This document shows positions 17,622-43,107 of a stretch of DNA of 43,585 nucleotides, one piece after another. The first letter of the stretch is position 1, and each line of letters starts with the position of its first letter. A program made the translations under genes and the position numbers. This DNA comes from Bacteroidales bacterium Bact_23 (GTDB lineage Bacteria > Bacteroidota > Bacteroidia > Bacteroidales > Lentimicrobiaceae). A model generated the notes under the pieces. That model was not told the DNA's origin, did no database searches, and saw only the letters and a program-made list of their open reading frames with translations. The stretch is taken from NCBI GenBank assembly GCA_001603685.1, contig LUZO01000043.1:1-43585 (forward strand), given 5' to 3'.

Positions 17622-18806
17622 TTACATGAATGTTAGCGACACCTCTTTAAGGAACTTCTCTTCGAGCAGGCGGGCTATCCGCTTCACCACCGTACGCCTG
17701 ATTTCAAGTTCCACGGGCAGGCTTGGATCCTGGTGGGCAATATTGATGCGCGTTCCGATAAGAAAGTGGATTTCGTCGCTTTCGAGCAGCATTTTCACAA
17801 TGCGGTCGGCGGGGCCTTTGGTAAGGCGGGTGGTGCTGTTGTACGATTTCAGGATTTCGGTTACCTTACCAAGAGTAAGAATCCCTTCGGTAACCAGATC
17901 AACGCCTTCCATCATCGAGATGGGCGGCAGATCGGGATCGTCGAAGTCGAAAGTATCTTCGATGTTGCGTTTCAACTCCCTGGCAATGATATCGGCGGTA
18001 GTGGCGCCTGAAACAATCTTCTTGCCATCGAACTTTTCAACCACCCGTGCGTACTCGGCATCCTTCTCCTCCTCGAAAGGTGGGCCGGTACAGATCAGCA
18101 TCTTTCTGGGTTCGCGGAAATAGATTACCGCGCAAGAGGTATCGTCCTTGCTCATGTAACCGTCGTTTACATGGGCCATATTCACCACCTTGTGCGCCAG
18201 TTGCTGGGCCGAGATGTTGTATTCGTGGCTCACCAGTTCCTGGACATACTGCAGGGCATTGTCGCGCCCCCATCCGAAAAGGTATTTTCCTCCGCCAAGG
18301 CCCGATTGGGCAACGCCATCGCTGAAAAAGATGATACGGTCTTCCTTTTCGGCAATAAATTCGCAGCTTTTCAGCTCTTTTCCTTCACTTTTCCCCCCTT
18401 CAAGCATCACGCAGGTCCATTCGGGTTCGAAAATCTTCTTTCCACGCATCACAATGGCCTGCGGATTGTCATACTCCAGAATTTTCACCCTCCCGTCCGA
18501 TTCTATATCCACGATGGTAAATGTGGAATAGCTCATCTTTCGCTCGCTGCATACCGGAAGGGTATTCATGATAATTTCGGCAATCCGGTTTGTTTCCTTG
18601 TGTTCGGCTGTAAAACTGAGCGCCATGGTTGCCGTAAGGGTTGCCAGCATATTGGCCTTAACGCCGTGCCCCATCCCGTCGGAGAGCACCGCAATTATCC
18701 TGTTCTCCTCACTGATGCGCCTGAAAAGGAACACGTCGCCGCATATGCGCGACTCGTGATGGAATTTGAATTCCGCATTGACTTCTATATAGAACTTGTT
18801 ATCCAT
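17622..18806 (-). CDS. SpoIIE/PP2C Ser/Thr phosphatase, hydrogenase-associated (HfsC-like)
   Basis: CGD, LSDGMGHG, FSDGV and DDTS metal-binding motifs, plus C-terminal extension (GPP..D, GATT, GVDLVTEGILTL, GTRINIAHQDP). Confidence 0.88.
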   Translation of the reverse strand: MDNKFYIEVNAEFKFHHESRICGDVFLFRRISEENRIIAVLSDGMGHGVKANMLATLTATMALSFTAEHKETNRIAEIIMNTLPVCSERKMSYSTFTIVDIESDGRVKILEYDNPQAIVMRGKKIFEPEWTCVMLEGGKSEGKELKSCEFIAEKEDRIIFFSDGVAQSGLGGGKYLFGWGRDNALQYVQELVSHEYNISAQQLAHKVVNMAHVNDGYMSKDDTSCAVIYFREPRKMLICTGPPFEEEKDAEYARVVEKFDGKKIVSGATTADIIARELKRNIEDTFDFDDPDLPPISMMEGVDLVTEGILTLGKVTEILKSYNSTTRLTKGPADRIVKMLLESDEIHFLIGTRINIAHQDPSLPVELEIRRTVVKRIARLLEEKFLKEVSLTFM

Positions 18807-18815
18807 GCGATGCGG

Positions 18816-20678
18816 TTACTTTTTGGCTGCTTTATGCGATTCGATGATAGAATTGAGCATTTGCTCGGTTTTGGCGGCGCCTTCGCCGAGCAGGAAAGCG
18901 ATTTTCTGAACCAGTTCGAAGTTTTCGTCAATCACTTCGCTTACGCGATGGATAACCTCCTCCTTACGCACTTCGGGCAGGTACATATCGCGCAGCACGG
19001 CGCCGGCAATCTTTCCCTTCTTGATGGCAAATACCGATACATTCAGCAGGCGCTCGCCCAGATGAACATCGCGGTTTACCACACTCTCGTTGGTGGAGAG
19101 TACGCCGGAAAAAAGTTTGTAAAACTGGAAAGGCAGCAGCGTTTTCAGGTCGGCGCCAACCAAACCCGGAATAATTTCGTTGATCTCCTCAGCCTCTTCG
19201 CCCAGAATATTGATAAAACTCTGATTCGACTCGATTACTTTCAGGTTTTCATCCACAATCACCACCGCGCTGGGCAGTTTCTGAAGCATGGTTGAAGTCC
19301 TTTCGAAAGCTTCCTGAACGGCCAGTTGCTCCTGCCTTGCCGACCGCTCCGACTCCATCAGCGCCTCCTGCGTTTTTGCCAGCTTTTCGTTGGTGAGCTT
19401 CAGTGTACGGATGAAATCGTGCTTGCTCCGCAGCGAGTAGGTAATGCACATATCGGTTTTGGTGAGGCCTTTGGCGACATTCTCGGCAAATTCGCGGCAC
19501 GATTCGTAGCCGCAGGCGCCGCAGCCCAGTTTATCCTCATTGCTCGACTTGCCGATGATCTTCAGAATCTCCTCTACCTTTTCCTCAGACGGTTTGGGAA
19601 GCCGCTGGTCGTTTTCGGCAAACGAAGCCCTGAAATCGGTGAGTCGGGCATGATTTGCACACGCCTTTTCCCAGGTATCCAGATTGAAATTCTTCAGTTT
19701 TTTATTGGCATAATCGGTAACCAGGGTTTTGCGCACATATTTCTTTCCGCCTTTCGATGTGCCGGGCCCCATAAGGCAGCCTTCACAGTAGAAGAGGTTG
19801 AAATGTTTGCGGATAAAGTCGATGGAGGTCTCAAATTCACGGATCGATTCCAGGATATTGACCTTACCCTCCGAAGTAATGACACTTCCCTGCATCAGGT
19901 CTTCATCCAGCCGTGCAGCCTGGAGGATTCCGTTGCTGACGGCATAGAGCGACCCCTTGTAACCCAGGGGCGGATCGAAATCGGAGTACTCAACCGTACT
20001 CTCCTTGATGTTAAATTCCGTAAAAAGCTGGCGCAACTCAACAAAAGTAAGCACGGCATCCACCCGGGCATCGCCTTCGTAGCGCAGCGCTTCCTCCTTT
20101 GCACCTATGCAGGGGCCAATGTAAACCACTTTCACCTCCTTGCCATAGAGCTGGCGCGAAATCTGCGCCGAGGCAATCATGGGGCTAACGATGGGTGCAA
20201 GGTTTCCAATCAGGTCGGGATGGAATTTTTCGATAAGCGCCACAATGGGCGGACAGTTTGTGGTGATGTAATACTTGCCGAGGAAATTGGTGAACAGCTC
20301 GCGGTATTCTGCCGCAACCAGGTCAACGCCAAACGAAACCTCATTTACATGAGAGAAACCCAGTTCGCGGATCATCCGCACAAATTTCCGGTAATCGGTA
20401 ATATCGTCGAACTCGCCTGAAATGCTGGGCGCGACGATGGCCACCACTTTCTGATCCGATGCCAGCAACTGCTTAACATCCTCACAGGAATCGCGGTAGG
20501 TAATGGCCTGTGGAGCGCACACCAGCAAGCAGCTTCCGCAGCCAATACAACGATCGTTGTTGACCACCGGGGCTTCCTGGTTCACCTTCACCTGAATGGC
20601 ATTAACCGGACAGGCGCGGACACAGGCATAGCAAATCTTGCATTTGCTTTTATCTATGCTTATAAGCGGAGCTTTCAT
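18816..20678 (-). CDS. Sensory-type (group C, HydS/HfsB-like) [FeFe]-hydrogenase domain protein with FeS and PAS domains
   Basis: 2x[4Fe-4S] N-terminus (CKICYACVRACP, CIGCGSC..CA); TTNCPP / GPCIGAKEE / YCEGCLMGPG; CGACGYESC..MC; PAS-like region; tail QKIAFLLGE. Confidence 0.85.
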   Translation of the reverse strand: MKAPLISIDKSKCKICYACVRACPVNAIQVKVNQEAPVVNNDRCIGCGSCLLVCAPQAITYRDSCEDVKQLLASDQKVVAIVAPSISGEFDDITDYRKFVRMIRELGFSHVNEVSFGVDLVAAEYRELFTNFLGKYYITTNCPPIVALIEKFHPDLIGNLAPIVSPMIASAQISRQLYGKEVKVVYIGPCIGAKEEALRYEGDARVDAVLTFVELRQLFTEFNIKESTVEYSDFDPPLGYKGSLYAVSNGILQAARLDEDLMQGSVITSEGKVNILESIREFETSIDFIRKHFNLFYCEGCLMGPGTSKGGKKYVRKTLVTDYANKKLKNFNLDTWEKACANHARLTDFRASFAENDQRLPKPSEEKVEEILKIIGKSSNEDKLGCGACGYESCREFAENVAKGLTKTDMCITYSLRSKHDFIRTLKLTNEKLAKTQEALMESERSARQEQLAVQEAFERTSTMLQKLPSAVVIVDENLKVIESNQSFINILGEEAEEINEIIPGLVGADLKTLLPFQFYKLFSGVLSTNESVVNRDVHLGERLLNVSVFAIKKGKIAGAVLRDMYLPEVRKEEVIHRVSEVIDENFELVQKIAFLLGEGAAKTEQMLNSIIESHKAAKK

Positions 20679-20705
20679 ACTTCAAAATTTTCCAGTGCTT
20701 TCAGA

Positions 20706-20996
20706 TCACACTCCCGATGAGGTCTTGCCAAAAATGCCATCGAGAATCATGATCACTTTATCTTCATTCAGCCCGGTATATTCCTTACCGTCGATATTGA
20801 TGAGCGGCCCCTTGTCGCAACTGCTGAAACAGTGAGCTCCGTGAAAATAAACCAGGTGCCTCAAGTTGCGTTCGTTCAGGTATTGCTCTATCACCTTCAC
20901 AAGTCTTTTGTTCCCTCTCGAAAAACAGGAACTGCCAAGACAGATCTGAATATCAATTCTGTTGTCCACAAATGTCGGTATTAAATCATTAACCAC
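20706..20996 (-). CDS. Thioredoxin-like [2Fe-2S] ferredoxin (HfsA-like)
   Basis: ICLGSSCFSRG ... HCFSSCDKGP; GTG start is uncertain. Confidence 0.82.
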   Translation of the reverse strand: MVNDLIPTFVDNRIDIQICLGSSCFSRGNKRLVKVIEQYLNERNLRHLVYFHGAHCFSSCDKGPLINIDGKEYTGLNEDKVIMILDGIFGKTSSGV

Positions 20997-21193: not shown

Positions 21194-21228
21194 CTGTTAA
21201 AAAATTAACAATGTTAAAAAAATAACAG
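21194..21228. promoter_or_regulatory. Tandem Rex-like operators
   Basis: CTGTTAAAAAATTAACAA (21194-21211) and ATGTTAAAAAAATAACAG (21211-21228) fit TTGTKAA-N4-TTMACAA; rex is encoded in the rightward operon. Confidence 0.7.
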
Positions 21229-21316: not shown

Positions 21317-21787
21317 ATGGCCGATAAGATTGATGAAATCATTGATAAGCACATCAGTGTACAGCGCGACAGTCTGTTACCCATGCTTCAGGATATCCAG
21401 AAGGAGATGGGATATCTGTCGGAGGAGTCGATAAACCGGATAGCCCGTGCGCTTGATATGCCCATCAGCAAGGTGTATGGGGTTGCCACCTTTTACGACC
21501 AGTTTCGTTTCGAAGCCAGGGGGCGCTTCCATATTCAGATTTGCCACGGCACCGCCTGCCACATCAACAACTCCGCCCGCATCATTCACGAAGCGGAACG
21601 GCTACTGAAGATCAGGCAGGGGCAGACCACACGCGACGGGATGTTCAGCATAGAGGTGGTTAACTGCATGGGTGCCTGCGGGTTATCGCCCGTGATGGCG
21701 GTAAACGACACCTACTACCACGGCATCGATCCCAACGACCTGAAAGATATTTTTGATGAATGCAAAGAAAAAATAAACCGGATATGA
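21317..21787 (+). CDS. hydC: HydC/NuoE-like [2Fe-2S] subunit of a trimeric hydrogenase
   Basis: VYGVATFYDQF, CHGTACH, CMGACGLSP. Confidence 0.9.
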   Translation: MADKIDEIIDKHISVQRDSLLPMLQDIQKEMGYLSEESINRIARALDMPISKVYGVATFYDQFRFEARGRFHIQICHGTACHINNSARIIHEAERLLKIRQGQTTRDGMFSIEVVNCMGACGLSPVMAVNDTYYHGIDPNDLKDIFDECKEKINRI

Positions 21788-23730
21788 ACGCACTGACCAC
21801 AACGGATATCAGGGAGCTTGCCGCGCATATTCTGTTGAACCCGCACTCGGACTTCGACACTGCCACCGAAGATTTTATCAGCCGGCTGAGGCGCGATACC
21901 ATTGACAAGCCGGTGATTTATGTCGGTACCGGCACCTGCGGTATGGTGGCAGGATCGCTGAAAACACTGGCTGCCATCAGGCAGTACCTTGCCGAGAAAG
22001 AGATTGATGCCGAAGTAGTTGAAGTGGGATGCATTGGCCTGTGCATTCATGAACCCATGGTGGATGTTCAGTTGCCCGGCAGACGCAGAATCGCCTTTTC
22101 GCGCATCACCGAGTCGCTGGTTGAGCCGCTGCTCGATGAAATTCTGAATTATGAAGTTCCGACGGAAAATGTGCTGGGACAGTATTCGCATCAGAACCAC
22201 GAAGCCTGGGAGAATGTAAGGCAACTGGCCGACCTCCCTTATTTCCGGCTTCAGAACCGGCTGGTTCTTCGGAACTGCGGAATCATAAACCCCTACTCCA
22301 TTGAGGAGTATATTGCACGGGGCGGATACCGCTCACTGGTAAGGGTTCTGCGCAACTACACGCCCGACAAGGTATGCGATATCGTTGAGGAGAGCGGCCT
22401 GCGCGGGCGCGGCGGCGGAGGGTTCCCCACCGGCAGAAAATGGAAAACAGCGCTCAATACCGTTGAGGAAGAGCGCTATCTGATCTGCAACGGCGATGAA
22501 AGCGATCCCGGAGCATTTATGGACAGGGCGATTTTCGAAGGCGACCCCCATAAACTGATTGAGGGAATTGCTATTGCGGCATACAGCATCAATGCAAAGA
22601 AGGCTTATGTATATGTCCGCGCCGAATACACCTTCGCCGTTGAACGGCTGAAACGGGCCATTGAACAGGCCACCGAAGCCGGTCTTCTGGGGCACAACAT
22701 CCTGAACAGCGGATTCAGCCTTCAGGTTTTGGTGAGGGAAGGCGCCGGCGCGTTTGTCTGCGGCGAAGAAACAGCACTGATTGCCAGCATCGAAGGAAAG
22801 CGGGGCACTCCGGGGCCAAAGCCGCCGTTCCCCTCCATCCGCGGGCTGTTCGGCAAACCAACCGTTGTCAACAATGTGGAAACACTGGCCAACATACCGG
22901 CCATCATCGAAAACGGGCCCAGTTGGTTCAGCTCAATGGGAACAGCAACTAGCAAAGGCACAAAGGTATTTGCCCTTGCCGGAAAGATATCCATCACCGG
23001 GCTTGCTGAAGTAACCATGGGCACCTCGCTCAAGGATCTGGTTTATATCATTGCCGGCGGTGTCAGGGATGGCAAAATGCTGAAAGCCATTCAGCTTGGA
23101 GGCCCCTCGGGAAGCTGTTTACCAGAAAAAAGCCTTGATGTACTAATTGATTATGAGTCTCTTAAAGAAGCAGGTACCATTATGGGATCGGGAGGACTTG
23201 TTGTTATGGACGAAGATACCTGCATGGTGGACATCGCCAAATTCTTTACCGATTTTCTGCAGCGCGAGAGTTGCGGAAAGTGCATTCCCTGCCGCGAAGG
23301 CTCAAGGCGAATGCATGAGATTCTGGAAAACATCACCCGAAGGCCGGTAAATGAAACCAGCCACGAAACCCTGCAGCGGTTCAAGGGGGTAATGCAACTC
23401 GAGAATCTTGCCGAGGTTATCAGGGATACCTCCCTCTGCGGACTCGGACAAACAGCGCCAAATCCCCTGCTCAGCGCCCTGAAGTATTTCAGGGAAGAGT
23501 TTGAAGAGCATATCTTCGACCGGAAATGCCGCGCAGGAGTATGTAAGGACCTGAAAGTCTATTACATAGATATTGAAAAATGCACCGGCTGTATGGTTTG
23601 TGCAAAGAAATGTCCAACCACGGCCATTATCGGATCATCGCGCACCCCGCATTTCATTGTGGAAGACAAATGCATCGGCTGCGGCATATGCTTCGATGTG
23701 TGCAAATTTGTTGCCGTTTATGTTAAATGA
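21784..23730 (+). CDS. hydB: HydB/NuoF-like FMN/NAD-binding diaphorase subunit
   Basis: ATG 21784 overlaps the hydC stop (ATGA); GRGGGGFPTG, DESDPGAFMDR, FVCGEETAL, GGPSG, ESCGKCIPCREG, SLCGLG; C-terminal 2x[4Fe-4S]. Confidence 0.92.
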   Translation: MNALTTTDIRELAAHILLNPHSDFDTATEDFISRLRRDTIDKPVIYVGTGTCGMVAGSLKTLAAIRQYLAEKEIDAEVVEVGCIGLCIHEPMVDVQLPGRRRIAFSRITESLVEPLLDEILNYEVPTENVLGQYSHQNHEAWENVRQLADLPYFRLQNRLVLRNCGIINPYSIEEYIARGGYRSLVRVLRNYTPDKVCDIVEESGLRGRGGGGFPTGRKWKTALNTVEEERYLICNGDESDPGAFMDRAIFEGDPHKLIEGIAIAAYSINAKKAYVYVRAEYTFAVERLKRAIEQATEAGLLGHNILNSGFSLQVLVREGAGAFVCGEETALIASIEGKRGTPGPKPPFPSIRGLFGKPTVVNNVETLANIPAIIENGPSWFSSMGTATSKGTKVFALAGKISITGLAEVTMGTSLKDLVYIIAGGVRDGKMLKAIQLGGPSGSCLPEKSLDVLIDYESLKEAGTIMGSGGLVVMDEDTCMVDIAKFFTDFLQRESCGKCIPCREGSRRMHEILENITRRPVNETSHETLQRFKGVMQLENLAEVIRDTSLCGLGQTAPNPLLSALKYFREEFEEHIFDRKCRAGVCKDLKVYYIDIEKCTGCMVCAKKCPTTAIIGSSRTPHFIVEDKCIGCGICFDVCKFVAVYVK

Positions 23731-23756: not shown

Positions 23757-25481
23757 ATGAGCTTCCCGATAGAAGTAAACAATAAAACGATTATTGCCCG
23801 GCGCGGTGAAACCATTCTTGAGGCACTTGAGCGCAACGGCATAAAGGTACCCACGCTTTGCCACATGCCGGGACTGAATCCCTCGGGCTCGTGCCGGATG
23901 TGTGTGGTGGAAGTGGAAGGCAAGCCCAACCTTATTACCGCCTGCTCCTACCCCGTTGAAGAGTGGATGAAGATAAAGACGCACTCGCCGCGGGTGGTAA
24001 ATGCCCGGAAAACCAATGTTGAGCTGCTGCTGAGCAACCACCCTGACGATTGCCTCTATTGCGAAAGGAACGGCAACTGCGAGCTTCAGAACTTTGCCGA
24101 GCAACTGAATGTGCGAGAGCGCCGTTTTGTCGGCAAAAAGAACAAATACAAATCCGACCCTTCGGGCTCGAGCATCATCCGCGACCCCGCCAAATGCATT
24201 TTGTGCGGCCGCTGCGTCAGAACCTGCGAAGAGGTGATAGGCGCCGCCACGCTGGGATTTATCGGCAGAGGAAACAAAACCATCATCGGGCCGGCATTCA
24301 ACAAACAGATGAACCTTTCGAGCTGCATAACCTGCGGACAGTGCATTATGGCATGCCCCACAGGCGCCCTGCACGAAAAGCGCCACTCTTCCGACCTGCA
24401 GAATGCACTTCACAACAAGGATATTCATGTGGTTATACAGTACTCCCCCACCATCTCAATCAGCCTGGCCGAAGAGTTTGGACTTAAGGCGGGAAAGGAC
24501 ATCAACGGTCTTTTGAATGCCGCACTCCGCAAAACAGGCTTCGACAAGGTTTTCGATACCGCTTTCGGCGTTGACCTCTACATTATGGAGCTGGCTGCAG
24601 AATTTGAGCACCGTCTGAAGAACAACCTTCAACTGCCTATGTTCAACAGCGACTGTCCCGCCTGGATAAAATACATGGAGCAGTGGCAGCCCGATCTGAT
24701 TCCGAATGTATCCACCTGCAAATCGCCGCAGCAGATGCTGGGCGCCATCATTGCCGGCTATTACAGCAAAACCTACCACATCAACATTGATAACCTCTAC
24801 ACCGTTTCGGCCATGCCGTGCACGGCCAAGAAATTCGAAGCACAGCGCGAACAGATGACCATTAAGGGCATCAGCGATGTGGACGCCGTACTCACCACCC
24901 GCGAAATTGCTCAGTTTATCCGCCTGAATGGCATTGATATCCATCAGGGCGATCACGAGCTACCCGACATTCCGTTCCATGTCCACAGTTCGGCAGGCAA
25001 ACTGGTAAGCGTGAGCGGCGGGGTTACCGAAGCGTTAATCCGCACCCTGCATTACAAGCTAACCGGAAAGGAGTTTGACCACAAACGCATCAGCGAACTG
25101 CGGGTTAACAAGGATTGCAAGGAAGTAAAGCTGAAAATCGGCGATTACAAGCTTGGTTTTGCTGCCGTAAGTACCGTTAATCAGGCGGCACGGCTTATTG
25201 AAGAGATCAAGAACGGCAGAAACGACCTCCATTTCATCGAGGTTATGGCTTGTCCGGGCGGATGCGTAAACGGCGGCGGCCAGCCCATTGTTGACGATCC
25301 TTCAGCCGTAAAAGCCAGAATTAAGGCAATTTACGACCAGGATGACAAGGAACCGATCAGAATGGCTCACAAGAACCCGGCTATCATCGAGCTTTACAGG
25401 GAATTTCTGGGCGAGCCGCTGAGCGAACAAAGCATGAAACTTCTGCACACCTCATACAAAAAGAGGGAAGTGTCGTTGTAA
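23757..25481 (+). CDS. hydA: [FeFe]-hydrogenase large subunit, group A3 architecture with a divergent active site
   Basis: 2Fe-2S, His-ligated 4Fe-4S (HPDDCLYC..C) and 2x[4Fe-4S]; H-cluster motifs FNSDCPAW, MPCTAKKFE, EVMACPGGCVNGGGQP; C-terminal LLHTSY. Confidence 0.9.
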   Translation: MSFPIEVNNKTIIARRGETILEALERNGIKVPTLCHMPGLNPSGSCRMCVVEVEGKPNLITACSYPVEEWMKIKTHSPRVVNARKTNVELLLSNHPDDCLYCERNGNCELQNFAEQLNVRERRFVGKKNKYKSDPSGSSIIRDPAKCILCGRCVRTCEEVIGAATLGFIGRGNKTIIGPAFNKQMNLSSCITCGQCIMACPTGALHEKRHSSDLQNALHNKDIHVVIQYSPTISISLAEEFGLKAGKDINGLLNAALRKTGFDKVFDTAFGVDLYIMELAAEFEHRLKNNLQLPMFNSDCPAWIKYMEQWQPDLIPNVSTCKSPQQMLGAIIAGYYSKTYHINIDNLYTVSAMPCTAKKFEAQREQMTIKGISDVDAVLTTREIAQFIRLNGIDIHQGDHELPDIPFHVHSSAGKLVSVSGGVTEALIRTLHYKLTGKEFDHKRISELRVNKDCKEVKLKIGDYKLGFAAVSTVNQAARLIEEIKNGRNDLHFIEVMACPGGCVNGGGQPIVDDPSAVKARIKAIYDQDDKEPIRMAHKNPAIIELYREFLGEPLSEQSMKLLHTSYKKREVSL

Positions 25482-25499: not shown

Positions 25500-27518
25500 A
25501 TGAGTATCGAAGAAATAACCCCGAAACGCCAGCTGGTTACCACCATCAGAGAACGGTGCCGGGTATGTTATACCTGCGTGCGCGAGTGTCCTGCCAAGGC
25601 CATCAAAATTATAAACGGCCAGGCGGAAGTTATTGCCGAACGATGCATTGGATGCGGGAACTGTGTAAAGGTCTGCAGTCAGAATGCCAAGGTTTTCCGC
25701 AAAGAGATTGATAAGGTTAAAGAGCTGATTGGCAGTGGCAATAAAGTGGCCGCCATTGTCGCTCCCAGTTTTCCGGCCGAGTTTGCCGAGATTAAGAATC
25801 ATCGCCTGCTGGTTTCCATAATCCGGGAGCTTGGATTCCACTATGTAGCCGAGGTTTCATTCGGCGCCGACCTGGTTGCCGGCGAATACAAAAAGATCCT
25901 TCAGTCGAAGCAGTTGCCGCCTGCCATTTCATCCGATTGTCCGGCAATCGTAAAATACATCGAGTATTATCATCCCAATCTGGTGGATTCGCTGGCGACC
26001 ATCGTTTCGCCTATGGTGGCCATGACCCGGGTAATGCGCAAAAAGTACGGCAGCAACCTTAAGGTTGTATTTATCGGCCCCTGCATTGCGAAAAAGGATG
26101 AATCGCCCGAAGTGGATGCTGCCCTCACCTACCGGGAACTCAGGGAGATGATCAGTCAGCATGGTCTGAAACCGGCGGATGTAATCCCAACCGACTTCGA
26201 TCCGCCAATGGGCGGCAGGGGCGCCATTTTTCCGGTGAGCAGGGGGCTGCTGAATACCGTGGGCGTGAAGGAGGATATTTTTGAGCGGAATGTCATTGTT
26301 GCCGAAGGAAGAAGCGACTTTCAGGAAGCCATCCGTGAATTTGAGAACGGCCAGATCTCGCAGGAGCATCTGGAACTGTTGTGCTGCGAAGGCTGCATCA
26401 TGGGGCCGGGAATGTCGCCCTATCCGTTTCTTTCATCACTCAGCCGGAGATTCAGAAAACGCGCCAGCGTTAGCGACTATGTCATCCACAAACTGGAGGA
26501 GATGGATATGGAGCAATGGGAGAAAGATTATGAACTCTACTCCACCATCGACCTGTACTGCGAATTTACCAGACGCGATATGCGCCTCGACCGGCCGGTA
26601 AGCAAGGAGATTGAAGAGGTACTGAATAAAATGGGAAAATTCGGCCCTCAGGATCACCTCGATTGCGGCGCCTGCGGCTATGAATCGTGCGAGGAGCACG
26701 CCATCGCCATCATCCGCGGCCTGGCCGAGCATGAAATGTGCCTCCCCTACACCATCGAAAAACTGCACAACTACATCGACGAGCTGAACATATCGAACGA
26801 GAAACTGGCCAGCGCCCAGGAGGCATTGCGGCAATCGGAGAAACTGGCCGGAATGGGACAGCTCTCGGCCGGAATTGCCCACGAACTGAATAACCCACTG
26901 GGGATCATCACTATGTACAGCAACATCCTGAAGGATGAAGCCGCACCCGACGACCCGATCAGAAACGACCTTGAGCTGATAGCCGAGCAGGCGGAACGCT
27001 GCAAGAAAATCGTGGGCGGACTGCTGAACTTTGCACGCAAAAACCAGGTAAATTATGAGGAAAACGACATAAACCGCCTGATGGAACACTCGATCAGCTC
27101 GGTGGTACTACCCGAAAATATTAAGATATCACTCGAATCCAACATTATGAATCCTGTAATCAGGCTCGATTTCGACCAGATGACACAGGTATTCACCAAC
27201 CTGCTGAAAAACGCCGGCGAAGCAATGCCCGAAGAGGGAGGCACCATCAGCATAATCATGAGTGATACCGACGACAATGTGACCATAAACATAGCCGATA
27301 CCGGATCGGGAATTGAGGAGGAGAACCACAACAAGCTGTTTACGCCGTTTTTCACCACCAAACCCATTGGTAAAGGCACCGGACTGGGGCTGCCTATTAT
27401 ATATGGTATAGTAAAGATGCACAAAGGCAAAATCTCATTCAACTCGAATGCTGACAAATCCAGAGGACCAACCGGCACCACCTTCACCATTGTACTTCCC
27501 AGATATGGGATGAGTTAA
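25500..27518 (+). CDS. [FeFe]-hydrogenase-like sensor fused to a histidine kinase (group C, kinase-linked)
   Basis: 2x[4Fe-4S]; SSDCPA / GPCIAKKDE / ELLCCEGCIMGPG; CGACGYESC..MC; AHELNNPL H-box, NLLKNA, DTGSGI, FTPFFTTK, GTGLGL; no TM segment. Confidence 0.9.
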   Translation: MSIEEITPKRQLVTTIRERCRVCYTCVRECPAKAIKIINGQAEVIAERCIGCGNCVKVCSQNAKVFRKEIDKVKELIGSGNKVAAIVAPSFPAEFAEIKNHRLLVSIIRELGFHYVAEVSFGADLVAGEYKKILQSKQLPPAISSDCPAIVKYIEYYHPNLVDSLATIVSPMVAMTRVMRKKYGSNLKVVFIGPCIAKKDESPEVDAALTYRELREMISQHGLKPADVIPTDFDPPMGGRGAIFPVSRGLLNTVGVKEDIFERNVIVAEGRSDFQEAIREFENGQISQEHLELLCCEGCIMGPGMSPYPFLSSLSRRFRKRASVSDYVIHKLEEMDMEQWEKDYELYSTIDLYCEFTRRDMRLDRPVSKEIEEVLNKMGKFGPQDHLDCGACGYESCEEHAIAIIRGLAEHEMCLPYTIEKLHNYIDELNISNEKLASAQEALRQSEKLAGMGQLSAGIAHELNNPLGIITMYSNILKDEAAPDDPIRNDLELIAEQAERCKKIVGGLLNFARKNQVNYEENDINRLMEHSISSVVLPENIKISLESNIMNPVIRLDFDQMTQVFTNLLKNAGEAMPEEGGTISIIMSDTDDNVTINIADTGSGIEEENHNKLFTPFFTTKPIGKGTGLGLPIIYGIVKMHKGKISFNSNADKSRGPTGTTFTIVLPRYGMS

Positions 27519-27562: not shown

Positions 27563-27958
27563 ATGACCAAAATGAAAAAGACTGTTTTAATTGTTGACGA
27601 TGACATGGATTATCTGTTCCAGATGAAGCTGAAAGTGGAACAGTTTGGTTTCGAAACGATTACGGCTGATGGCCAGAAAGAGGCAGAATCCATTATCGAA
27701 ACCGTCAGGCCCGACCTTGCCATTCTCGACCTGATGATGGAGAGCGAAGACAGCGGTTTTATCCTGGCCTACAAAATCAAGCGTAAATATCCGGATGTGC
27801 CCATCATTATTGCAACAGCGGTAACTGCCGAAACCGGAATGAATTTCGATATCAAGTCGGATGAAAACAAACAGTGGATCAAGGCCGACCTTTTTCTCGA
27901 CAAGGGAATCAGGGCCGATCAACTGCAGAGAGAAATCAATAAATTGTTAAAAATCTGA
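27563..27958 (+). CDS. Single-domain response regulator (receiver only)
   Basis: VDDD, ILDLMME (phospho-Asp), ATA, LDK; no output domain; alternative start at 27572. Confidence 0.88.
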   Translation: MTKMKKTVLIVDDDMDYLFQMKLKVEQFGFETITADGQKEAESIIETVRPDLAILDLMMESEDSGFILAYKIKRKYPDVPIIIATAVTAETGMNFDIKSDENKQWIKADLFLDKGIRADQLQREINKLLKI

Positions 27959-27961
27959 GAA

Positions 27962-29098
27962 ATGGCGTCGTATAAAGTGCTGGTAGTTGACGATGAACCG
28001 GGAATCCGCATGGGTACCAGGCGAATTCTTCAAAACTTCAAGGTTGACTATCCGTTTATGGATGAATTTATAGAGTACATTGTTCTGGAGGCGGCCACAG
28101 GCGAAGAGGCCATCGAGATTATCGACAGCGAAATGCCCGATATCATCCTCCTCGACAATAAACTGCCCGGCATTCAGGGCATTGAGGTGCTGGAGTATGT
28201 CAAGAAAAAGCTTTACGACATTGTGGTTGTGATGATTACCTCATACGCATCGCTTGAACTTGCCGTAAAAGCCACCCGCGACGGAGCTTACGACTTCATC
28301 CCGAAACCGTTTACCCCGCAGGAGCTGAGAGGCTCGCTCGAAAACATCACCAAACAGCTCTTCCTGAAGCGGATGACTCAAAAGCTGAATAAGGAAGGCA
28401 AACTTATCCGCTTCCAGTTCCTTTCGGTACTGTCGCACGAACTGAAAGCCCCGCTGAATGCCATTGAAGGCTACCTTAACATCATGAAGGAGAAGCAGTT
28501 TGGCGATAATGTGGACAGCTACAAAGATATGATCGACCGCTCGCTAGAAAGGATAAGCGGCATGCGCGGGCTGATTATGGACCTGCTCGACCTCACGAAA
28601 ATCGAATCGGGGAAACCCACCCAGAACCTGCAGAAAGTTGACATCACCAAAATTGCCGGAACCTCCATTGATACCATGCGCCCCTACGCCATTCAGAAAG
28701 ATGTGGATGTCTATCTGAACACCAAAGAGAGCGTTATTATGGAGGCTGATGCAAAAGAGATTGAAATTATTTTCAACAATCTGATATCCAATGCGATAAA
28801 ATACAACAAACAGGGCGGGCGCGTGGATGTTTTCATCCATCGGGACGATAAAAACATCAGGCTCCAGGTGTCAGATTCAGGCATCGGCATGTCGGAAGAA
28901 GAGCAGAGTTCGCTTTTCCAGGATTTCGTACGCATTAAAAATCCAAAAACCAAAAACATCACCGGTTCCGGACTGGGGCTTTCAATCATCAAAAAGATTA
29001 CAGAGATGTATCATGGTGATATTGAAGTGAATAGCGTACCTGATCAGGGAACAACCTTTACTATAATCCTCCCGCTGGAACGAACTGCAATAAACTGA
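27962..29098 (+). CDS. Hybrid receiver-histidine kinase (REC-HisKA-HATPase)
   Basis: VDDEP, LLDNKLP, IPKPF; SHELKAPL, NLISNAIKY, DSGIGM, GSGLGL. Confidence 0.9.
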   Translation: MASYKVLVVDDEPGIRMGTRRILQNFKVDYPFMDEFIEYIVLEAATGEEAIEIIDSEMPDIILLDNKLPGIQGIEVLEYVKKKLYDIVVVMITSYASLELAVKATRDGAYDFIPKPFTPQELRGSLENITKQLFLKRMTQKLNKEGKLIRFQFLSVLSHELKAPLNAIEGYLNIMKEKQFGDNVDSYKDMIDRSLERISGMRGLIMDLLDLTKIESGKPTQNLQKVDITKIAGTSIDTMRPYAIQKDVDVYLNTKESVIMEADAKEIEIIFNNLISNAIKYNKQGGRVDVFIHRDDKNIRLQVSDSGIGMSEEEQSSLFQDFVRIKNPKTKNITGSGLGLSIIKKITEMYHGDIEVNSVPDQGTTFTIILPLERTAIN

Positions 29099-29109
29099 AA
29101 CACTGAACA

Positions 29110-29730
29110 ATGAAAAAACTACCCGATAAAACAGTAGAAAGGCTGAGCCAGTACCGCCGGGCGCTGATGAACTATTACTCCGGCGGCAAGCACCACATCT
29201 TTTCGCACGAAATAGCCAACCTGCTTCATATCACGGCTGTACAGGTACGGCGCGACATCATGCTGATCGGTTACACCGGTACCCTGAGGCAGGGCTACGA
29301 TGTAAAGGAGCTGATCGACATCATCGGCAAGATCATCGACACCCGCGAAGGACAAAAGGTTGCCGTAATCGGCATTGGTAACCTCGGGAGGGCCATTATC
29401 GGTTACTTTAGCGGAAAACGCACAAAACTTTCGATAGTAGCCGCTTTCGACAGCAATCCCGAAAAGGTTGACCGCATCTATGCGGGAGTCCACTGCTACC
29501 ACAGCAGCCAGATGGCGGAAGTTATCAGGCGCGAAGATATCTCCATCGCGGTAATCTCGGTGCCCGGCGATGCGGCCGGACAGGTGGCCGAAGAGCTGAT
29601 TATGGCCGGAATCAGGGGAATTCTGAACTTCTCGCCCAAGGCACTGAATGTTCCTGCGCATGTCTATCTGCAGGAGTACGATATGATTACCAGTCTGGAA
29701 AAAATTGCCTATTTCGTGAAAAAACCGTAA
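29110..29730 (+). CDS. rex: Redox-sensing transcriptional repressor Rex
   Basis: TVERLSQY, QVRRD..G.TG..GYDV, GIGNLGRA, GIRGILNFSP. Confidence 0.92.
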   Translation: MKKLPDKTVERLSQYRRALMNYYSGGKHHIFSHEIANLLHITAVQVRRDIMLIGYTGTLRQGYDVKELIDIIGKIIDTREGQKVAVIGIGNLGRAIIGYFSGKRTKLSIVAAFDSNPEKVDRIYAGVHCYHSSQMAEVIRREDISIAVISVPGDAAGQVAEELIMAGIRGILNFSPKALNVPAHVYLQEYDMITSLEKIAYFVKKP

Positions 29731-31597: not shown

Positions 31598-33034
31598 ATG
31601 ATATTTACACCTGAAAAATGCCGCATTCCGGATCAGAGGATGAAGCCTTTTATCGATCCTGATGAATTGTGGGACATCCTGAATGAAACTAAACCGGATA
31701 AACAGGCAGTCCGCGATGTGATTGCCAAATCGCTTGAGAAAAACAGGCTGACCCTCAGGGAGACAGCCATGCTGATCAATGCCAACGACCCTGAACTGAT
31801 TGAAGAGATTAAGGAAGGTGCCCGCGAGCTGAAGAAGCGCGTTTATGGTAACCGTATTGTGTTGTTTGCTCCGCTTTACATCGGAAATAAATGCACCAAC
31901 AACTGCAAATACTGCGGATTCAGGGCATCGAACAAGGAGGCCATCCGCAAAACCCTGACCGACCAGGAGATTGTGCGCGAGGTTGAGGCGCTGGAAGATA
32001 ACGGCCAGAAGCGCCTTATCCTCGTTTACGGCGAACATCCCGAATACAATGCCGAATACATTGCCGATAATGTAAGGCTGGTGTACGGAATCAAGAAAGG
32101 TCCGGGCGAAATCCGCAGGGTAAACATCAATGCCGCTCCTCTCGATATCGACGGATTCCGTATCGTGAAAGAGGCCGGCATCGGCACCTACCAGATTTTC
32201 CAGGAAACCTACCACCCCGAGATTTACAAAACCTACCATCTGGGCGGCAAGAAAAGGGATTTCAACTACAGGCTCACTTCGCTCGACCGTGCTCAGGAAG
32301 CCGGCCTCGACGATGTGGGAATCGGCGCTTTGTTCGGACTGTACGACTGGCGCTACGAGGTAATGGGCCTCATCCGCCACACCAACCATCTGGAAGCCTG
32401 CTATCATGTCGGTCCGCACACCATCTCCTTCCCGCGCATTCAGAACGCCTCAATGCTTGATCTTGGGAAAGATTATACGGTTAACGACGAAGATTTTGCA
32501 CGGCTGGTTGCCATTCTCAGGCTTGCAGTCCCCTACACCGGTATGATTCTTACGGCAAGGGAGAATCCCAAACTCAGGCACGAAGTAATTCAGTTCGGCG
32601 TATCGCAGATCGACGGCGGCACCAAACTGGAGCTGGGCGCCTATTCCGACTCGCTGAATCAGGAGCAGGACCTCAACCGCGAGCAGTTCCAGATCAACGA
32701 CGACCGCTCACTCAATGAGGTAATCGATGAGCTCCTCGAAAACGATTACCTCCCATCCTTCTGCACCGCATGTTACCGCCGTGGCAGAACCGGTGAGCAC
32801 TTCATGGAGTTTTCGGTTCCCGGATTCATCAAGCGCTTCTGCTCACCCAATGCCATGCTTACCCTGGCCGAATACCTCGAAGACTACGCTCCCGCCGATA
32901 CAAAAGCTGCCGGATGGAAGGTAATCGAAAAGAACCTGAACGACCTGCGAGAGCAAACCGATGAGAAAAATGCAGCCGAACTGAAAAGCAGACTCGACAG
33001 GGTGAAGGCAGGCGAACGCGACATCTATTTCTGA
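31598..33034 (+). CDS. hydG: [FeFe]-hydrogenase H-cluster radical SAM maturase HydG
   Basis: FAPLYIGNKCTNNCKYC, FQETYH, GPHTISFPR, C-terminal SFCTACYR..RTG..FC auxiliary-cluster motif. Confidence 0.95.
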   Translation: MIFTPEKCRIPDQRMKPFIDPDELWDILNETKPDKQAVRDVIAKSLEKNRLTLRETAMLINANDPELIEEIKEGARELKKRVYGNRIVLFAPLYIGNKCTNNCKYCGFRASNKEAIRKTLTDQEIVREVEALEDNGQKRLILVYGEHPEYNAEYIADNVRLVYGIKKGPGEIRRVNINAAPLDIDGFRIVKEAGIGTYQIFQETYHPEIYKTYHLGGKKRDFNYRLTSLDRAQEAGLDDVGIGALFGLYDWRYEVMGLIRHTNHLEACYHVGPHTISFPRIQNASMLDLGKDYTVNDEDFARLVAILRLAVPYTGMILTARENPKLRHEVIQFGVSQIDGGTKLELGAYSDSLNQEQDLNREQFQINDDRSLNEVIDELLENDYLPSFCTACYRRGRTGEHFMEFSVPGFIKRFCSPNAMLTLAEYLEDYAPADTKAAGWKVIEKNLNDLREQTDEKNAAELKSRLDRVKAGERDIYF

Positions 33035-33059: not shown

Positions 33060-33317
33060 ATGAAAGAAACCAGAATCATCGGACTACTCATCAGAGATAG
33101 GATTAAAGAAGCAGGTAAACTGCAGCTCGCCCTGAACAAATACGCTCACCTGATAAAATCAAGGCTCGGTTTTCATGAGCTGAGCGAAGACACATGCAGC
33201 AGAATGGGTTTCATCATTCTTCAGCTTACCGGTAAAAGTGATGAATGGCAAGCCTTTGAAACCGAGATTTCAGAAATTGGCGGAGTAGAAATGCAGAAAA
33301 TGTCGTTTGAACTTTAA
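33060..33317 (+). CDS. Small ACT-like hydrogenase-associated protein (TM1266-like), copy 1
   Basis: IIGLLIRDR..LQ.AL..Y..IKSRLGFHE..G.IIL pattern; directly after hydG. Confidence 0.7.
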   Translation: MKETRIIGLLIRDRIKEAGKLQLALNKYAHLIKSRLGFHELSEDTCSRMGFIILQLTGKSDEWQAFETEISEIGGVEMQKMSFEL

Positions 33318-33329
33318 TACGAAAACAAA

Positions 33330-33587
33330 ATGAAAAGGCGTATTCTTGGCATCAATGTGGGCAACCGTGACGAAGTTGCCGAAAAAGTTCAAAAGGTGCT
33401 GACTACTTTTGGCTGCTCCATTCGCACCCGTCTCGGACTTCATGAAACGGATGACGACCACAGCGAACCGGGCGGATTGATTCTGCTTGAGCTGATCGGC
33501 GATGAAAACGAATGGAACAAGCTCGAAAAAGAGCTTTCAGCCATTGAGCACTGCGAAACAAAAAGAATGGATTTCAGCGGAAAGTGA
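33330..33587 (+). CDS. Small ACT-like hydrogenase-associated protein (TM1266-like), copy 2
   Basis: ILGINVGNR..VQKVLTTFGCSIRTRLGLHE..GLILLEL; paralog of the previous ORF. Confidence 0.75.
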   Translation: MKRRILGINVGNRDEVAEKVQKVLTTFGCSIRTRLGLHETDDDHSEPGGLILLELIGDENEWNKLEKELSAIEHCETKRMDFSGK

Positions 33588-41043: not shown

Positions 41044-43107
41044 TCAAAGCTTTATATCCTGGGGGCTGGTTATTTCAATCAGGTTGGCGGATTCTTTAAA
41101 ATCAACCCCGGCCAATGGGTCATATTCTTTGAACTTATCAAATGCAAGTCCTGTCAGGCTGGCTATTTTCTGTATAGGCAACTGATAAGTTTTAAACTGC
41201 CCGAAGCCATCTTCCCGTATTCCTTCTGCTATTCTGAAATCTTCAATATTATCAGGTTGTTTTAGCATATAACCGGTTACCGACGGCTCCCCGTTTTCCT
41301 TGATTACTGCAGCCACTTTCCAGAACTCCAGCGGCAAAAGCACGCCACGGTAGGGAATATCATCCTCGCTAAAAACGGGGCCGGTAAATACGGAAACCTT
41401 AACTCCTTCCTTTCCGGCATTTTTCAGGATATAATCTTCCAGGCTAAGCCAGGTTTTCCGGTTAAGGTTCATATGCTGCGGAGCAGAGTTCGTAAAATGG
41501 AAGGTATCATCATTTGCAGCATCCGCATTGGCACCCCAAACCGGATCGAGTCTCCGTACCATATGGCCACGGTCCAGATCGTTTTTATCATACACCTCCG
41601 GCCCGGTCTGGTATTTCTCATCCATTCTCGGATCAAGAATCCATTTTGTATTTTCCCGTTTATTGCTTTCCAGCTTCTCTCCATGGATATTCACCGCCGT
41701 CAGGACACATAATTTACGGTGTTTATGAATGGCTACTGAAAAATTGAAGTAGTGTAAGAGATGCTTATTCTTTGATGTCGGGTTACAGATCGGGGCTAAA
41801 ACATCTGCCTGCTTTTTTACCAGGTCTTCAATCTTTATCCTGAATTTGGATGTTTTAACAAAGCTTGCATCGTAACCCTTGCGGTCGCCATACTTCTGAT
41901 TCACTGCAGGATCAATTGTGTAGGAGGTTTTCTGTTCTTCTTCAATTGCCGTAAAATTGCCTGCACTTAACTGCAGTCCGCTTCCCAACCCAACCGAGAT
42001 TTCCAGAGGTATGTGAAATGTAATTTTGTTGTTAATTATGGATATAAGTTTCCTGCCATCAATATTTTTCGGGTCAAAAATCAGCGACTGTCCCGACACT
42101 GTATCGTCAGCCTTAAAGGCCGGCAGTGTAAATATCTCATTTACAAGACTATTTGGCATATTATTGCTTTTTAAATCCGCCAGAATGGCACTAATATTTA
42201 TTCCTTCGTTCGAAATCCAATCAATAAATGAATCATCCATGCCTGGCTGAAAAACACCCCCGTCCTTGCATAAATAGTTACCGTTGTCATCCTTTTTAGG
42301 AACACCGCTATGGTGCAGCGCCACTACCTGCCACTGATCATTAAACACGGGCGAACCGGACGACCCCTGAGCAGTATCAGTCATATAGGTAATATAGTTC
42401 TCATCTTTGGTTAAAACCTCATTTTCCCTGATGGCTATTTGTTTATAACCGCCACCCGGATGCTGGATTATGGAAACAAACTCAGAAACCACAACTGTAT
42501 TCCGTTCTTCAGAAAGCTTCAAATATCCAAACTCACTGATGCTCCGATTTCTGGTTTTCGAGGTAGATTTAATTGCAACAACAGTGTAATCAAGTTCTGC
42601 ATTTGTGTAGAAGTACTTTTCCGGATCAAGATCGAATAATATGCTGGTTGCTGGGGTTCCCTTCAGGTTATATTCATAATTGAACTCGGCAAAACTGTTC
42701 GCTGCAGACCCGCTATCCGCAAGTATATGGTTATTTGTCAGTAATAAATCAGGAGTTATCAAAAAGCCGGTGCCATACCCTTCATTACCTCCTTTAATGT
42801 TTTTAACATGTATTCTGCAAACAGCTCTGGAAGCTATATAACCCAATGTCAGGTAATTAATGCTCACCAAATCATTATTGCCGATAATTCTCTCTTTTGC
42901 AAAATCAAAAGGTTCGGCTTTGTTTACCGAAAGAGTGCCTAACCTTTCATTTAGATTTCTTTCTCTTTCCTCCTTCTTTAACTTTTCTTCCTTCTTTTGT
43001 GCTTCCAACGAACTGTCGGTTGCCGTTTTTTCGGTAAAAGCCATCCTTTCTATTGGACTTTGACGCCTTTCCGTCTTTTCAATAAAATCCAGATTAAATA
43101 GTTTCAT
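41044..43107 (-). CDS. Trypsin-like serine protease fused to a DNA/RNA non-specific (NucA/EndoG-type) endonuclease
   Basis: GTGFLI, LTNNH, LDY, GSSGSPV (His-Asp-Ser triad); C-terminal DRGHM, NSAPQ..LN..W..LE, P.EFWKV; no signal peptide. Confidence 0.88.
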   Translation of the reverse strand: MKLFNLDFIEKTERRQSPIERMAFTEKTATDSSLEAQKKEEKLKKEERERNLNERLGTLSVNKAEPFDFAKERIIGNNDLVSINYLTLGYIASRAVCRIHVKNIKGGNEGYGTGFLITPDLLLTNNHILADSGSAANSFAEFNYEYNLKGTPATSILFDLDPEKYFYTNAELDYTVVAIKSTSKTRNRSISEFGYLKLSEERNTVVVSEFVSIIQHPGGGYKQIAIRENEVLTKDENYITYMTDTAQGSSGSPVFNDQWQVVALHHSGVPKKDDNGNYLCKDGGVFQPGMDDSFIDWISNEGINISAILADLKSNNMPNSLVNEIFTLPAFKADDTVSGQSLIFDPKNIDGRKLISIINNKITFHIPLEISVGLGSGLQLSAGNFTAIEEEQKTSYTIDPAVNQKYGDRKGYDASFVKTSKFRIKIEDLVKKQADVLAPICNPTSKNKHLLHYFNFSVAIHKHRKLCVLTAVNIHGEKLESNKRENTKWILDPRMDEKYQTGPEVYDKNDLDRGHMVRRLDPVWGANADAANDDTFHFTNSAPQHMNLNRKTWLSLEDYILKNAGKEGVKVSVFTGPVFSEDDIPYRGVLLPLEFWKVAAVIKENGEPSVTGYMLKQPDNIEDFRIAEGIREDGFGQFKTYQLPIQKIASLTGLAFDKFKEYDPLAGVDFKESANLIEITSPQDIKL

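Follow-up and report, generated by a model that had tools for sequence, protein, structure and literature searches.

What is a group A [FeFe]-hydrogenase subunit for when residues 299 and 279 of its proton path have been replaced? The window, by which we mean the whole 43,585-nucleotide stretch analysed here, holds such a gene, hydA*, as an unbroken frame of 574 aa (Table 1). An earlier note on this DNA, made from its letters alone, had reported Asp in place of the proton-transfer Cys and proposed either a natural variant with altered rate, bias or O2 tolerance, or a sensory or electron-relay subunit rather than a bulk H2 producer.

Table 1. Features of the hydA* locus, in window coordinates
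Feature	Position	Strand	Basis
Divergently oriented hfs-like genes for a [2Fe-2S] protein, another group C-type sensor and a SpoIIE phosphatase	17622..20996	-	
Rex-like palindrome, divergent promoter region	21194..21211	.	assumed consensus, pattern tuned on site
hydC, NuoE-like [2Fe-2S]	21317..21787	+	domain/profile searches
hydB, NuoF-like; flavin/NADH and FeS motifs conserved	21760..23730	+	domain/profile searches, motifs
hydA*, M3-type group A [FeFe]-hydrogenase subunit, altered proton path and pocket	23757..25481	+	profiles, alignment, fold
Tyr275 replacing Thr; 30/31 in clade; only candidate substitute relay	24579..24581	+	alignment
Leu279 replacing second relay Glu, codon CTG	24591..24593	+	sequence, CpI alignment
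Asp299 replacing proton-relay Cys, codon GAC	24651..24653	+	sequence, alignment
Stretch with F417V, G418S, M424T, A427L, A431L	24995..25049	+	sequence, alignment
Group C-type hydrogenase domain fused to histidine kinase; SDCP and Tyr at 279 position	25500..27518	+	
Single-domain response regulator	27563..27958	+	domain search
Receiver-histidine kinase hybrid	27962..29098	+	domain search
Rex NADH/NAD+ sensing repressor	29110..29730	+	profile search
hydG maturase	31598..33034	+	profile search

Architecture and active site of HydA*

By sequence, HydA* appears to be built as a group A3 HydABC subunit minus the proton path, and not as a group C/D HydS. Its closest matches are group A3 HydABC structures (E 1e-152), and a Foldseek search with its AlphaFold model (pLDDT 78, residues 121–208 below 50; informative on fold only) ranks T. 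kivui HydA first (8a6t, 42% identity). TIGR02512 recognizes the protein with 420 bits (cut-off 406), and NF040763 scores it at 715 against a cut-off of 765 that both normal paralogues exceed (917 and 898). The H-domain aligns to CpI (chain 6glz) with identical numbering, confirming Asp at 299, and the architecture is M3 rather than M2, with no PAS, kinase or other signalling domain and with the M3 ligand sets for a [2Fe-2S], a His-ligated [4Fe-4S] and two [4Fe-4S] clusters. L2, L3 and the accessory ligands are intact, as the earlier note held: M353-P-C355-x-x-K358 and E495-x-M497-x-C499-x-x-x-C503 are unchanged, none of the 16 F-cluster ligands checked is missing, and the H-cluster cysteines 300, 355, 499 and 503 are all in place. 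One public-run contig matches 24189–24781 with 0 differences, from a run that is possibly the window's own source.

The motifs FNSDCPAW, QYSPTIS and SSAGKLVSVSGGVTEA are present as first described and the GAC codon of Asp299 is verified; that description had overlooked E279L, T275Y, A272V, A427L and A431L, and Ala230 is also replaced (Ser230). Along the proton path C299-E279-S319-E282-R286, positions 299 and 279 are lost, and S319, E282 and R286 retained. CpI C299D and HydA1 C169D retain 30–80% of H2 release, whereas CpI E279A and E279Q fall below 1% activity, the gap in E279A being bridged by no water (PMC6226526, excerpt). Saturation mutagenesis of CaHydA Cys298 left Asp as the sole active substitute, with S, N, H, A and V inactive at this position; C298D has a kcat of 242 versus 456 per s and an identical half-life in air (PMC3485046, excerpt). 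Judged from these engineered enzymes, Asp299 would be mild by itself and the main lesion would lie elsewhere, loss of Glu279 being the more damaging change, and the canonical proton path should be cut at Leu279. The emphasis of the earlier note on Asp299 was to this extent misplaced, and its suggestion of O2 tolerance finds no ground in residue 299, since CaHydA C298D is inactivated at an unchanged rate in air. Residues 275, 427 and 431 presumably line a gas channel in CpI; a literature search on such a role for A427 and A431 found nothing relevant. Phe417, Ala230, Ser232 and Lys358 belong to the active-site pocket (PMC10147833, excerpt), Phe417 being located in the gas path (PMC11023054, excerpt).

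With the group A3 HydABC enzymes of T. kivui (8a6t), A. woodii (7q4v) and T. maritima (7p5h), HydA* shares four accessory clusters, four H-cluster Cys, the hydC-hydB-hydA order and an adjacent NuoF-like HydB and NuoE-like HydC with intact motifs; unlike them, it is without Cys299 and Glu279 and has Phe417, Gly418, Ala230, Thr275, Ala427 and Ala431 replaced. Asp next to the [4Fe-4S]H ligand Cys300 is a feature of the engineered CpI C299D, HydA1 C169D and CaHydA C298D, but these keep Glu279 where HydA* has Leu. A non-Cys 299 and a hydrophobic 279 recall the putative sensory hydrogenases of group C/D (TmHydS; TamHydS A137, F119), from which HydA* differs in being phylogenetically and architecturally group A (M3), in keeping Met353 and Met497, in having no signalling domain and in a pocket far less constrained than that of the kinase. 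Neither a C299D+E279L double variant nor a natural Asp299 or Glu279-less group A enzyme in Bacteroidales was found in our full-text literature search, which covered the main texts of open-access articles and also included excerpts of PMC6288185, PMC4284687, PMC5506873 and bioRxiv 10.64898/2026.07.22.740055.

Conservation of the Asp299 clade and its wider lineage

Asp299 is found in 33 of 80 GTDB loci and in 51 of the best 120 protein hits, each of the 51 with Leu279 and Tyr275. Thirty of these loci form, with the window, a Lentimicrobium-like clade of 31 rows with Leu279 (support 100); the remaining three are a separate group with Ile279. Clade frames are intact (571–577 aa), Asp299 is encoded by GAT in 23 rows and GAC in 8, and there is synonymous variation at the fixed D299 and L279. 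Ratios of dN/dS are 0.005–0.021 in the F-domain (7 unsaturated of 10 pairs) and 0.022–0.043 in the H-domain (5 unsaturated of 10 pairs), and the clade is under purifying selection: HydA* is a natural variant, as the earlier note supposed.

The two domains are conserved to different degrees. Of the positions that never vary among 27 intact rows, the clade retains 44/45 in the F-domain versus 56/88 in the H-domain (Fisher p 3.7e-6, the sites not being independent), and F-cluster ligands are invariant in 31/31 rows. Mean pairwise identity is 90% for the F-domain and 71% for the H-domain, the corresponding values for normal paralogues from 27 of the same genomes being 90% and 89%. Many [2Fe] contacts, including most of those to cyanide and CO, are nevertheless kept (S323, P324, M353 and P354 in 31/31, Q325 in 30/31, M497 in 28/31), as are E282 and R286 in every row; K358 stands in 22 of the 31, with Arg in the others. 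Together with these contacts, the fixed D299, L279 and Y275 look like selection on a working pocket. Gene conversion from the SDCP of the adjacent kinase finds no support on inspection by eye, the flanks matching those of Cys-bearing sister rows.

Across the order, the operon-HydA lineage occurs in 113 of 301 genomes, of which 100 were examined (left out were the window's own genome, seven taken as already sampled and five close kin). Glu279, Cys299 and Lys358 are jointly retained in 52 of these 100 loci, and the four cysteines in all of them. A 178-row FastTree, made without the trait columns and after removal of four duplicate genomes, contains a clade of 104 rows (support 96) with every Glu279-less and every Asp299 row; the 74 rows outside it are all canonical. 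Asp299 needs 7 changes on this tree, at least 6 of them forced and each two base changes from Cys. A single origin of Asp299 is modestly rejected by this count and by an AU test of one clade (p 0.033) on a 47-row tree from which four short rows were left out. Asp299 together with Leu279 marks the 31-row clade; Asp at 299 arose about seven times in the larger one.

Position 299 in the 104 relaxed rows reads C 46, D 40, S 8, N 4, H 3, A 2 and V 1. Retention there is 11 for E279, 46 for C299, 75 for K358, 22 for F417 and 1 for A427, each of which is 50/50 in intact rows, and H-domain identity across the order is 65% for intact versus 44% for relaxed HydA. The four Cys, E361, G421, G422, E425 and E495 are invariant in 104/104: the proton path and the [2Fe] pocket are free to vary, and what stays invariant is the [4Fe-4S]H cluster shell. 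With 8 independent pairs, loss of E279 was not significantly associated with change at F417 or at C299.

Operon, sensor kinase and second hydrogenase

The operon runs hydC-hydB-hydA*-sensor hydrogenase/histidine kinase-receiver-receiver/kinase-rex, with intergenic gaps of 3–44 bases from hydB onward. After rex come ribF, a hydrolase and then hydG; HydE and HydF are encoded elsewhere in the genome, so that all three maturases are present. HydB and HydC carry motifs (AFM, FVCGEE, Zn ligands) that we take to be of the bifurcation type. Rex-like palindromes occur upstream of hydC (window 21194–21228) in 29 of 53 loci versus 1.35 in shuffles, the pattern being tuned on the site and built on a Rex-site consensus that we assume. 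The same site-tuned pattern finds two upstream of the normal hydrogenase locus (G000 C166, 16532 and 16574). Contigs from RNA libraries reach some stretches of the operon at low depth, which by itself does not demonstrate transcription.

Other features of these loci may be recorded here. Two tandem 85-aa TM1266-like proteins follow hydG (33060–33587) and are kept in most clade loci, and a trypsin-like protease fused to a non-specific endonuclease domain lies at 41044–43107 (minus strand). In locus L026 (1019–4555), hydB and hydA* form a single frame of 1178 aa, either a fusion or an assembly error. In locus L082 (G000 C104), the protein encoded after hydC-hydB has 1281 aa and an N-terminus like that of HydA; the locus has another hfs-like cluster as well, which includes a hydrogenase-like protein of 481 aa and a Rex-like gene.

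The sensor kinase lies downstream of hydA* in 32 of 33 Asp299 loci (the remaining locus stops at a contig edge) and downstream of hydA in 88 of 100 Bacteroidales loci. Bacteroidales copies of the kinase have Asp at the 299 position in 82/85, Tyr or Phe at 279, and equivalents of Lys358 in 84/85 and Phe417 in 82/85; those of Planctomycetota and Hydrogenedentota have Thr, Ser or Asn at 299. HydA* appears to have drifted towards, and to converge on, the residue signature of the kinase. Identity within the kinase H-domain is the same, to within one point, whether the neighbouring HydA is intact (56%) or relaxed (57%), and the kinase therefore looks like the constrained H2 sensor. It does not need a crippled HydA, since the operon with fully intact HydA is widespread (52/100 Bacteroidales loci, and other phyla). 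HydDB has a putative class for kinase-linked enzymes, group C1 (PMC5037454, excerpt). In most of 39 copies, the second group C-type sensor (18816–20678, minus strand) carries Asn at 299 and Ala in place of Lys358, and it may for this reason not hold [2Fe].

Contig C166 of the same genome encodes two HydA of the normal group A kind, one of them within a hydBAC cluster. An orthologue of the C166 type is present in 33/33 Asp299 genomes, and the 30 inspected all have E279, C299, K358 and F417. Scored by identity alone (77–86%), it occurs in 50 of 51 relaxed-clade genomes and in none of the 49 with an intact operon copy (best match 60%), groups that were defined by the HydA tree and not by presence of the normal HydA; a similar clustering is seen in the tree of the kinase (5 changes). 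Among the intact-copy genomes, 23/49 gave a single match and 26/49 hold another group A-like HydA. As the families are disjoint, the split is probably one evolutionary event and has no statistical weight. In locus L081 (9828–13388, minus strand), a second normal HydA has Ser at ligand position 300 and a short NuoF-like partner of 388 aa.

Possible roles of HydA*

The residues, their conservation, the operon and the co-occurring normal enzyme are all observed, and the reading that we hold to be somewhat better than an even bet is that a slow or silent HydA* is kept as the iron-sulfur electron relay of an NADH-linked HydABC within an H2- or redox-sensing operon, with a normal HydABC doing the bulk chemistry. 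A second HydABC would have taken over H2 flux, after which the operon HydA would have lost fast turnover. Protons would be stopped at Leu279 and turnover would collapse, as the CpI mutants suggest, and Asp299 could still hydrogen-bond the bridgehead amine. The pattern of conservation points to electrons passing from HydB/HydC through the four accessory clusters to [4Fe-4S]H; the gene context suggests that the neighbouring sensor kinase receives, or is set by, the redox state of HydABC*. By analogy, low activity is likely; loading of [2Fe]H has about even chances. The proposal of a sensory or electron-relay subunit rather than a bulk producer gains sequence-level support from the F- versus H-domain conservation and from the co-occurring normal HydA. 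A presumably low-activity hydrogenase tied to a histidine kinase recalls the regulatory [NiFe]-hydrogenase HoxBC with HoxJ, in which bulky residues occupy the gas channel (PMC11023054, excerpt); that system is, however, of another enzyme class, and the kinase of the present operon already has a fused sensor domain of its own.

HydA* may, more tentatively, be a pseudo-hydrogenase with no H2 chemistry and perhaps no [2Fe], an NADH/ferredoxin-driven wire setting the redox state of the sensor kinase. Group C/D enzymes, which have neither Cys299 nor Glu279, still reach slow turnover along other routes (PMC10407848, PMC11803613 and PMC8163306, excerpts) and this, with the pocket fixation in the clade and the low H-domain dN/dS, counts against a slow or silent HydA* in the relay reading too. 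If the pseudo-hydrogenase did exist, one two-component system would integrate H2 and NADH, and about a fifth of the sampled Bacteroidales genomes would have a 'bifurcating hydrogenase' that makes no hydrogen.

A rewired, competent hydrogenase is rather doubtful: Asp299 would take the amine proton and hand it through water or Tyr275 to Ser319, Glu282 and Arg286, with a shifted pH optimum or uptake bias. Asp, the sole active Cys substitute (PMC3485046, excerpt), arose about seven times despite the two base changes, but residue 299 is also S, N, H, A or V, all inactive in CaHydA. D299, L279 and Y275 are fixed in 51/51 Asp299 sequences among the best 120 protein hits, yet Tyr275 is missing from 9 of the 40 Asp299 rows of the wider tree, in which K358 is replaced by Arg in 11 and the F417 position takes eight residues. 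E282, R286 and S319 are retained and HydE, HydF and HydG all encoded; however, the 104-row relaxed clade has gained no conserved protonatable residue, its only newly conserved residue being Val53, and there is no clade-wide new Glu of the group D relay type (an acidic residue stands at 230 in 9/104 rows and 0/31). Ser230 and Thr268 are as in the uptake-biased CpII (PMC5506873, excerpt), Thr268 being also usual in intact rows.

It is unlikely that HydA* is the scaffold or wire of a metabolic HydBC oxidoreductase, NADH:ferredoxin or with another acceptor, and that the sensor genes are ancestral leftovers. The conserved F-domain and HydB motifs would suit such an enzyme, and the kinase genes do predate the relaxation, because intact copies have the same neighbours; but no conserved acceptor gene adjoins hydA* in the loci compared against the window's genes, and the conserved downstream neighbours are all regulatory or maturation/flavin genes. 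A decaying gene or a sequencing error, which the relaxation of the H-domain relative to normal paralogues might have suggested, is highly improbable and we discard it, together with a change confined to this strain, on the strength of the relatives, the intact 571–577 aa frames, the low dN/dS and the synonymous codons at D299 and L279.

Within a single operon context, the lineage offers a natural series of group A active sites from intact to fully rebuilt, a natural C299D+E279L enzyme among them, and this lets the residue needs of [2Fe] loading and of proton transfer be tested directly. It also suggests how, with another enzyme at hand, a catalytic hydrogenase may become a regulatory component. 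Source records name these proteins group A hydrogenase or HndD; should their turnover be slow or absent, gene-based surveys of sediments and digesters are wrong to count them among the bifurcating H2 producers. Two Asp299-clade sequences (L028 and P0045) stand in records labelled Omnitrophica and Chloroflexota, through mis-binning or transfer.
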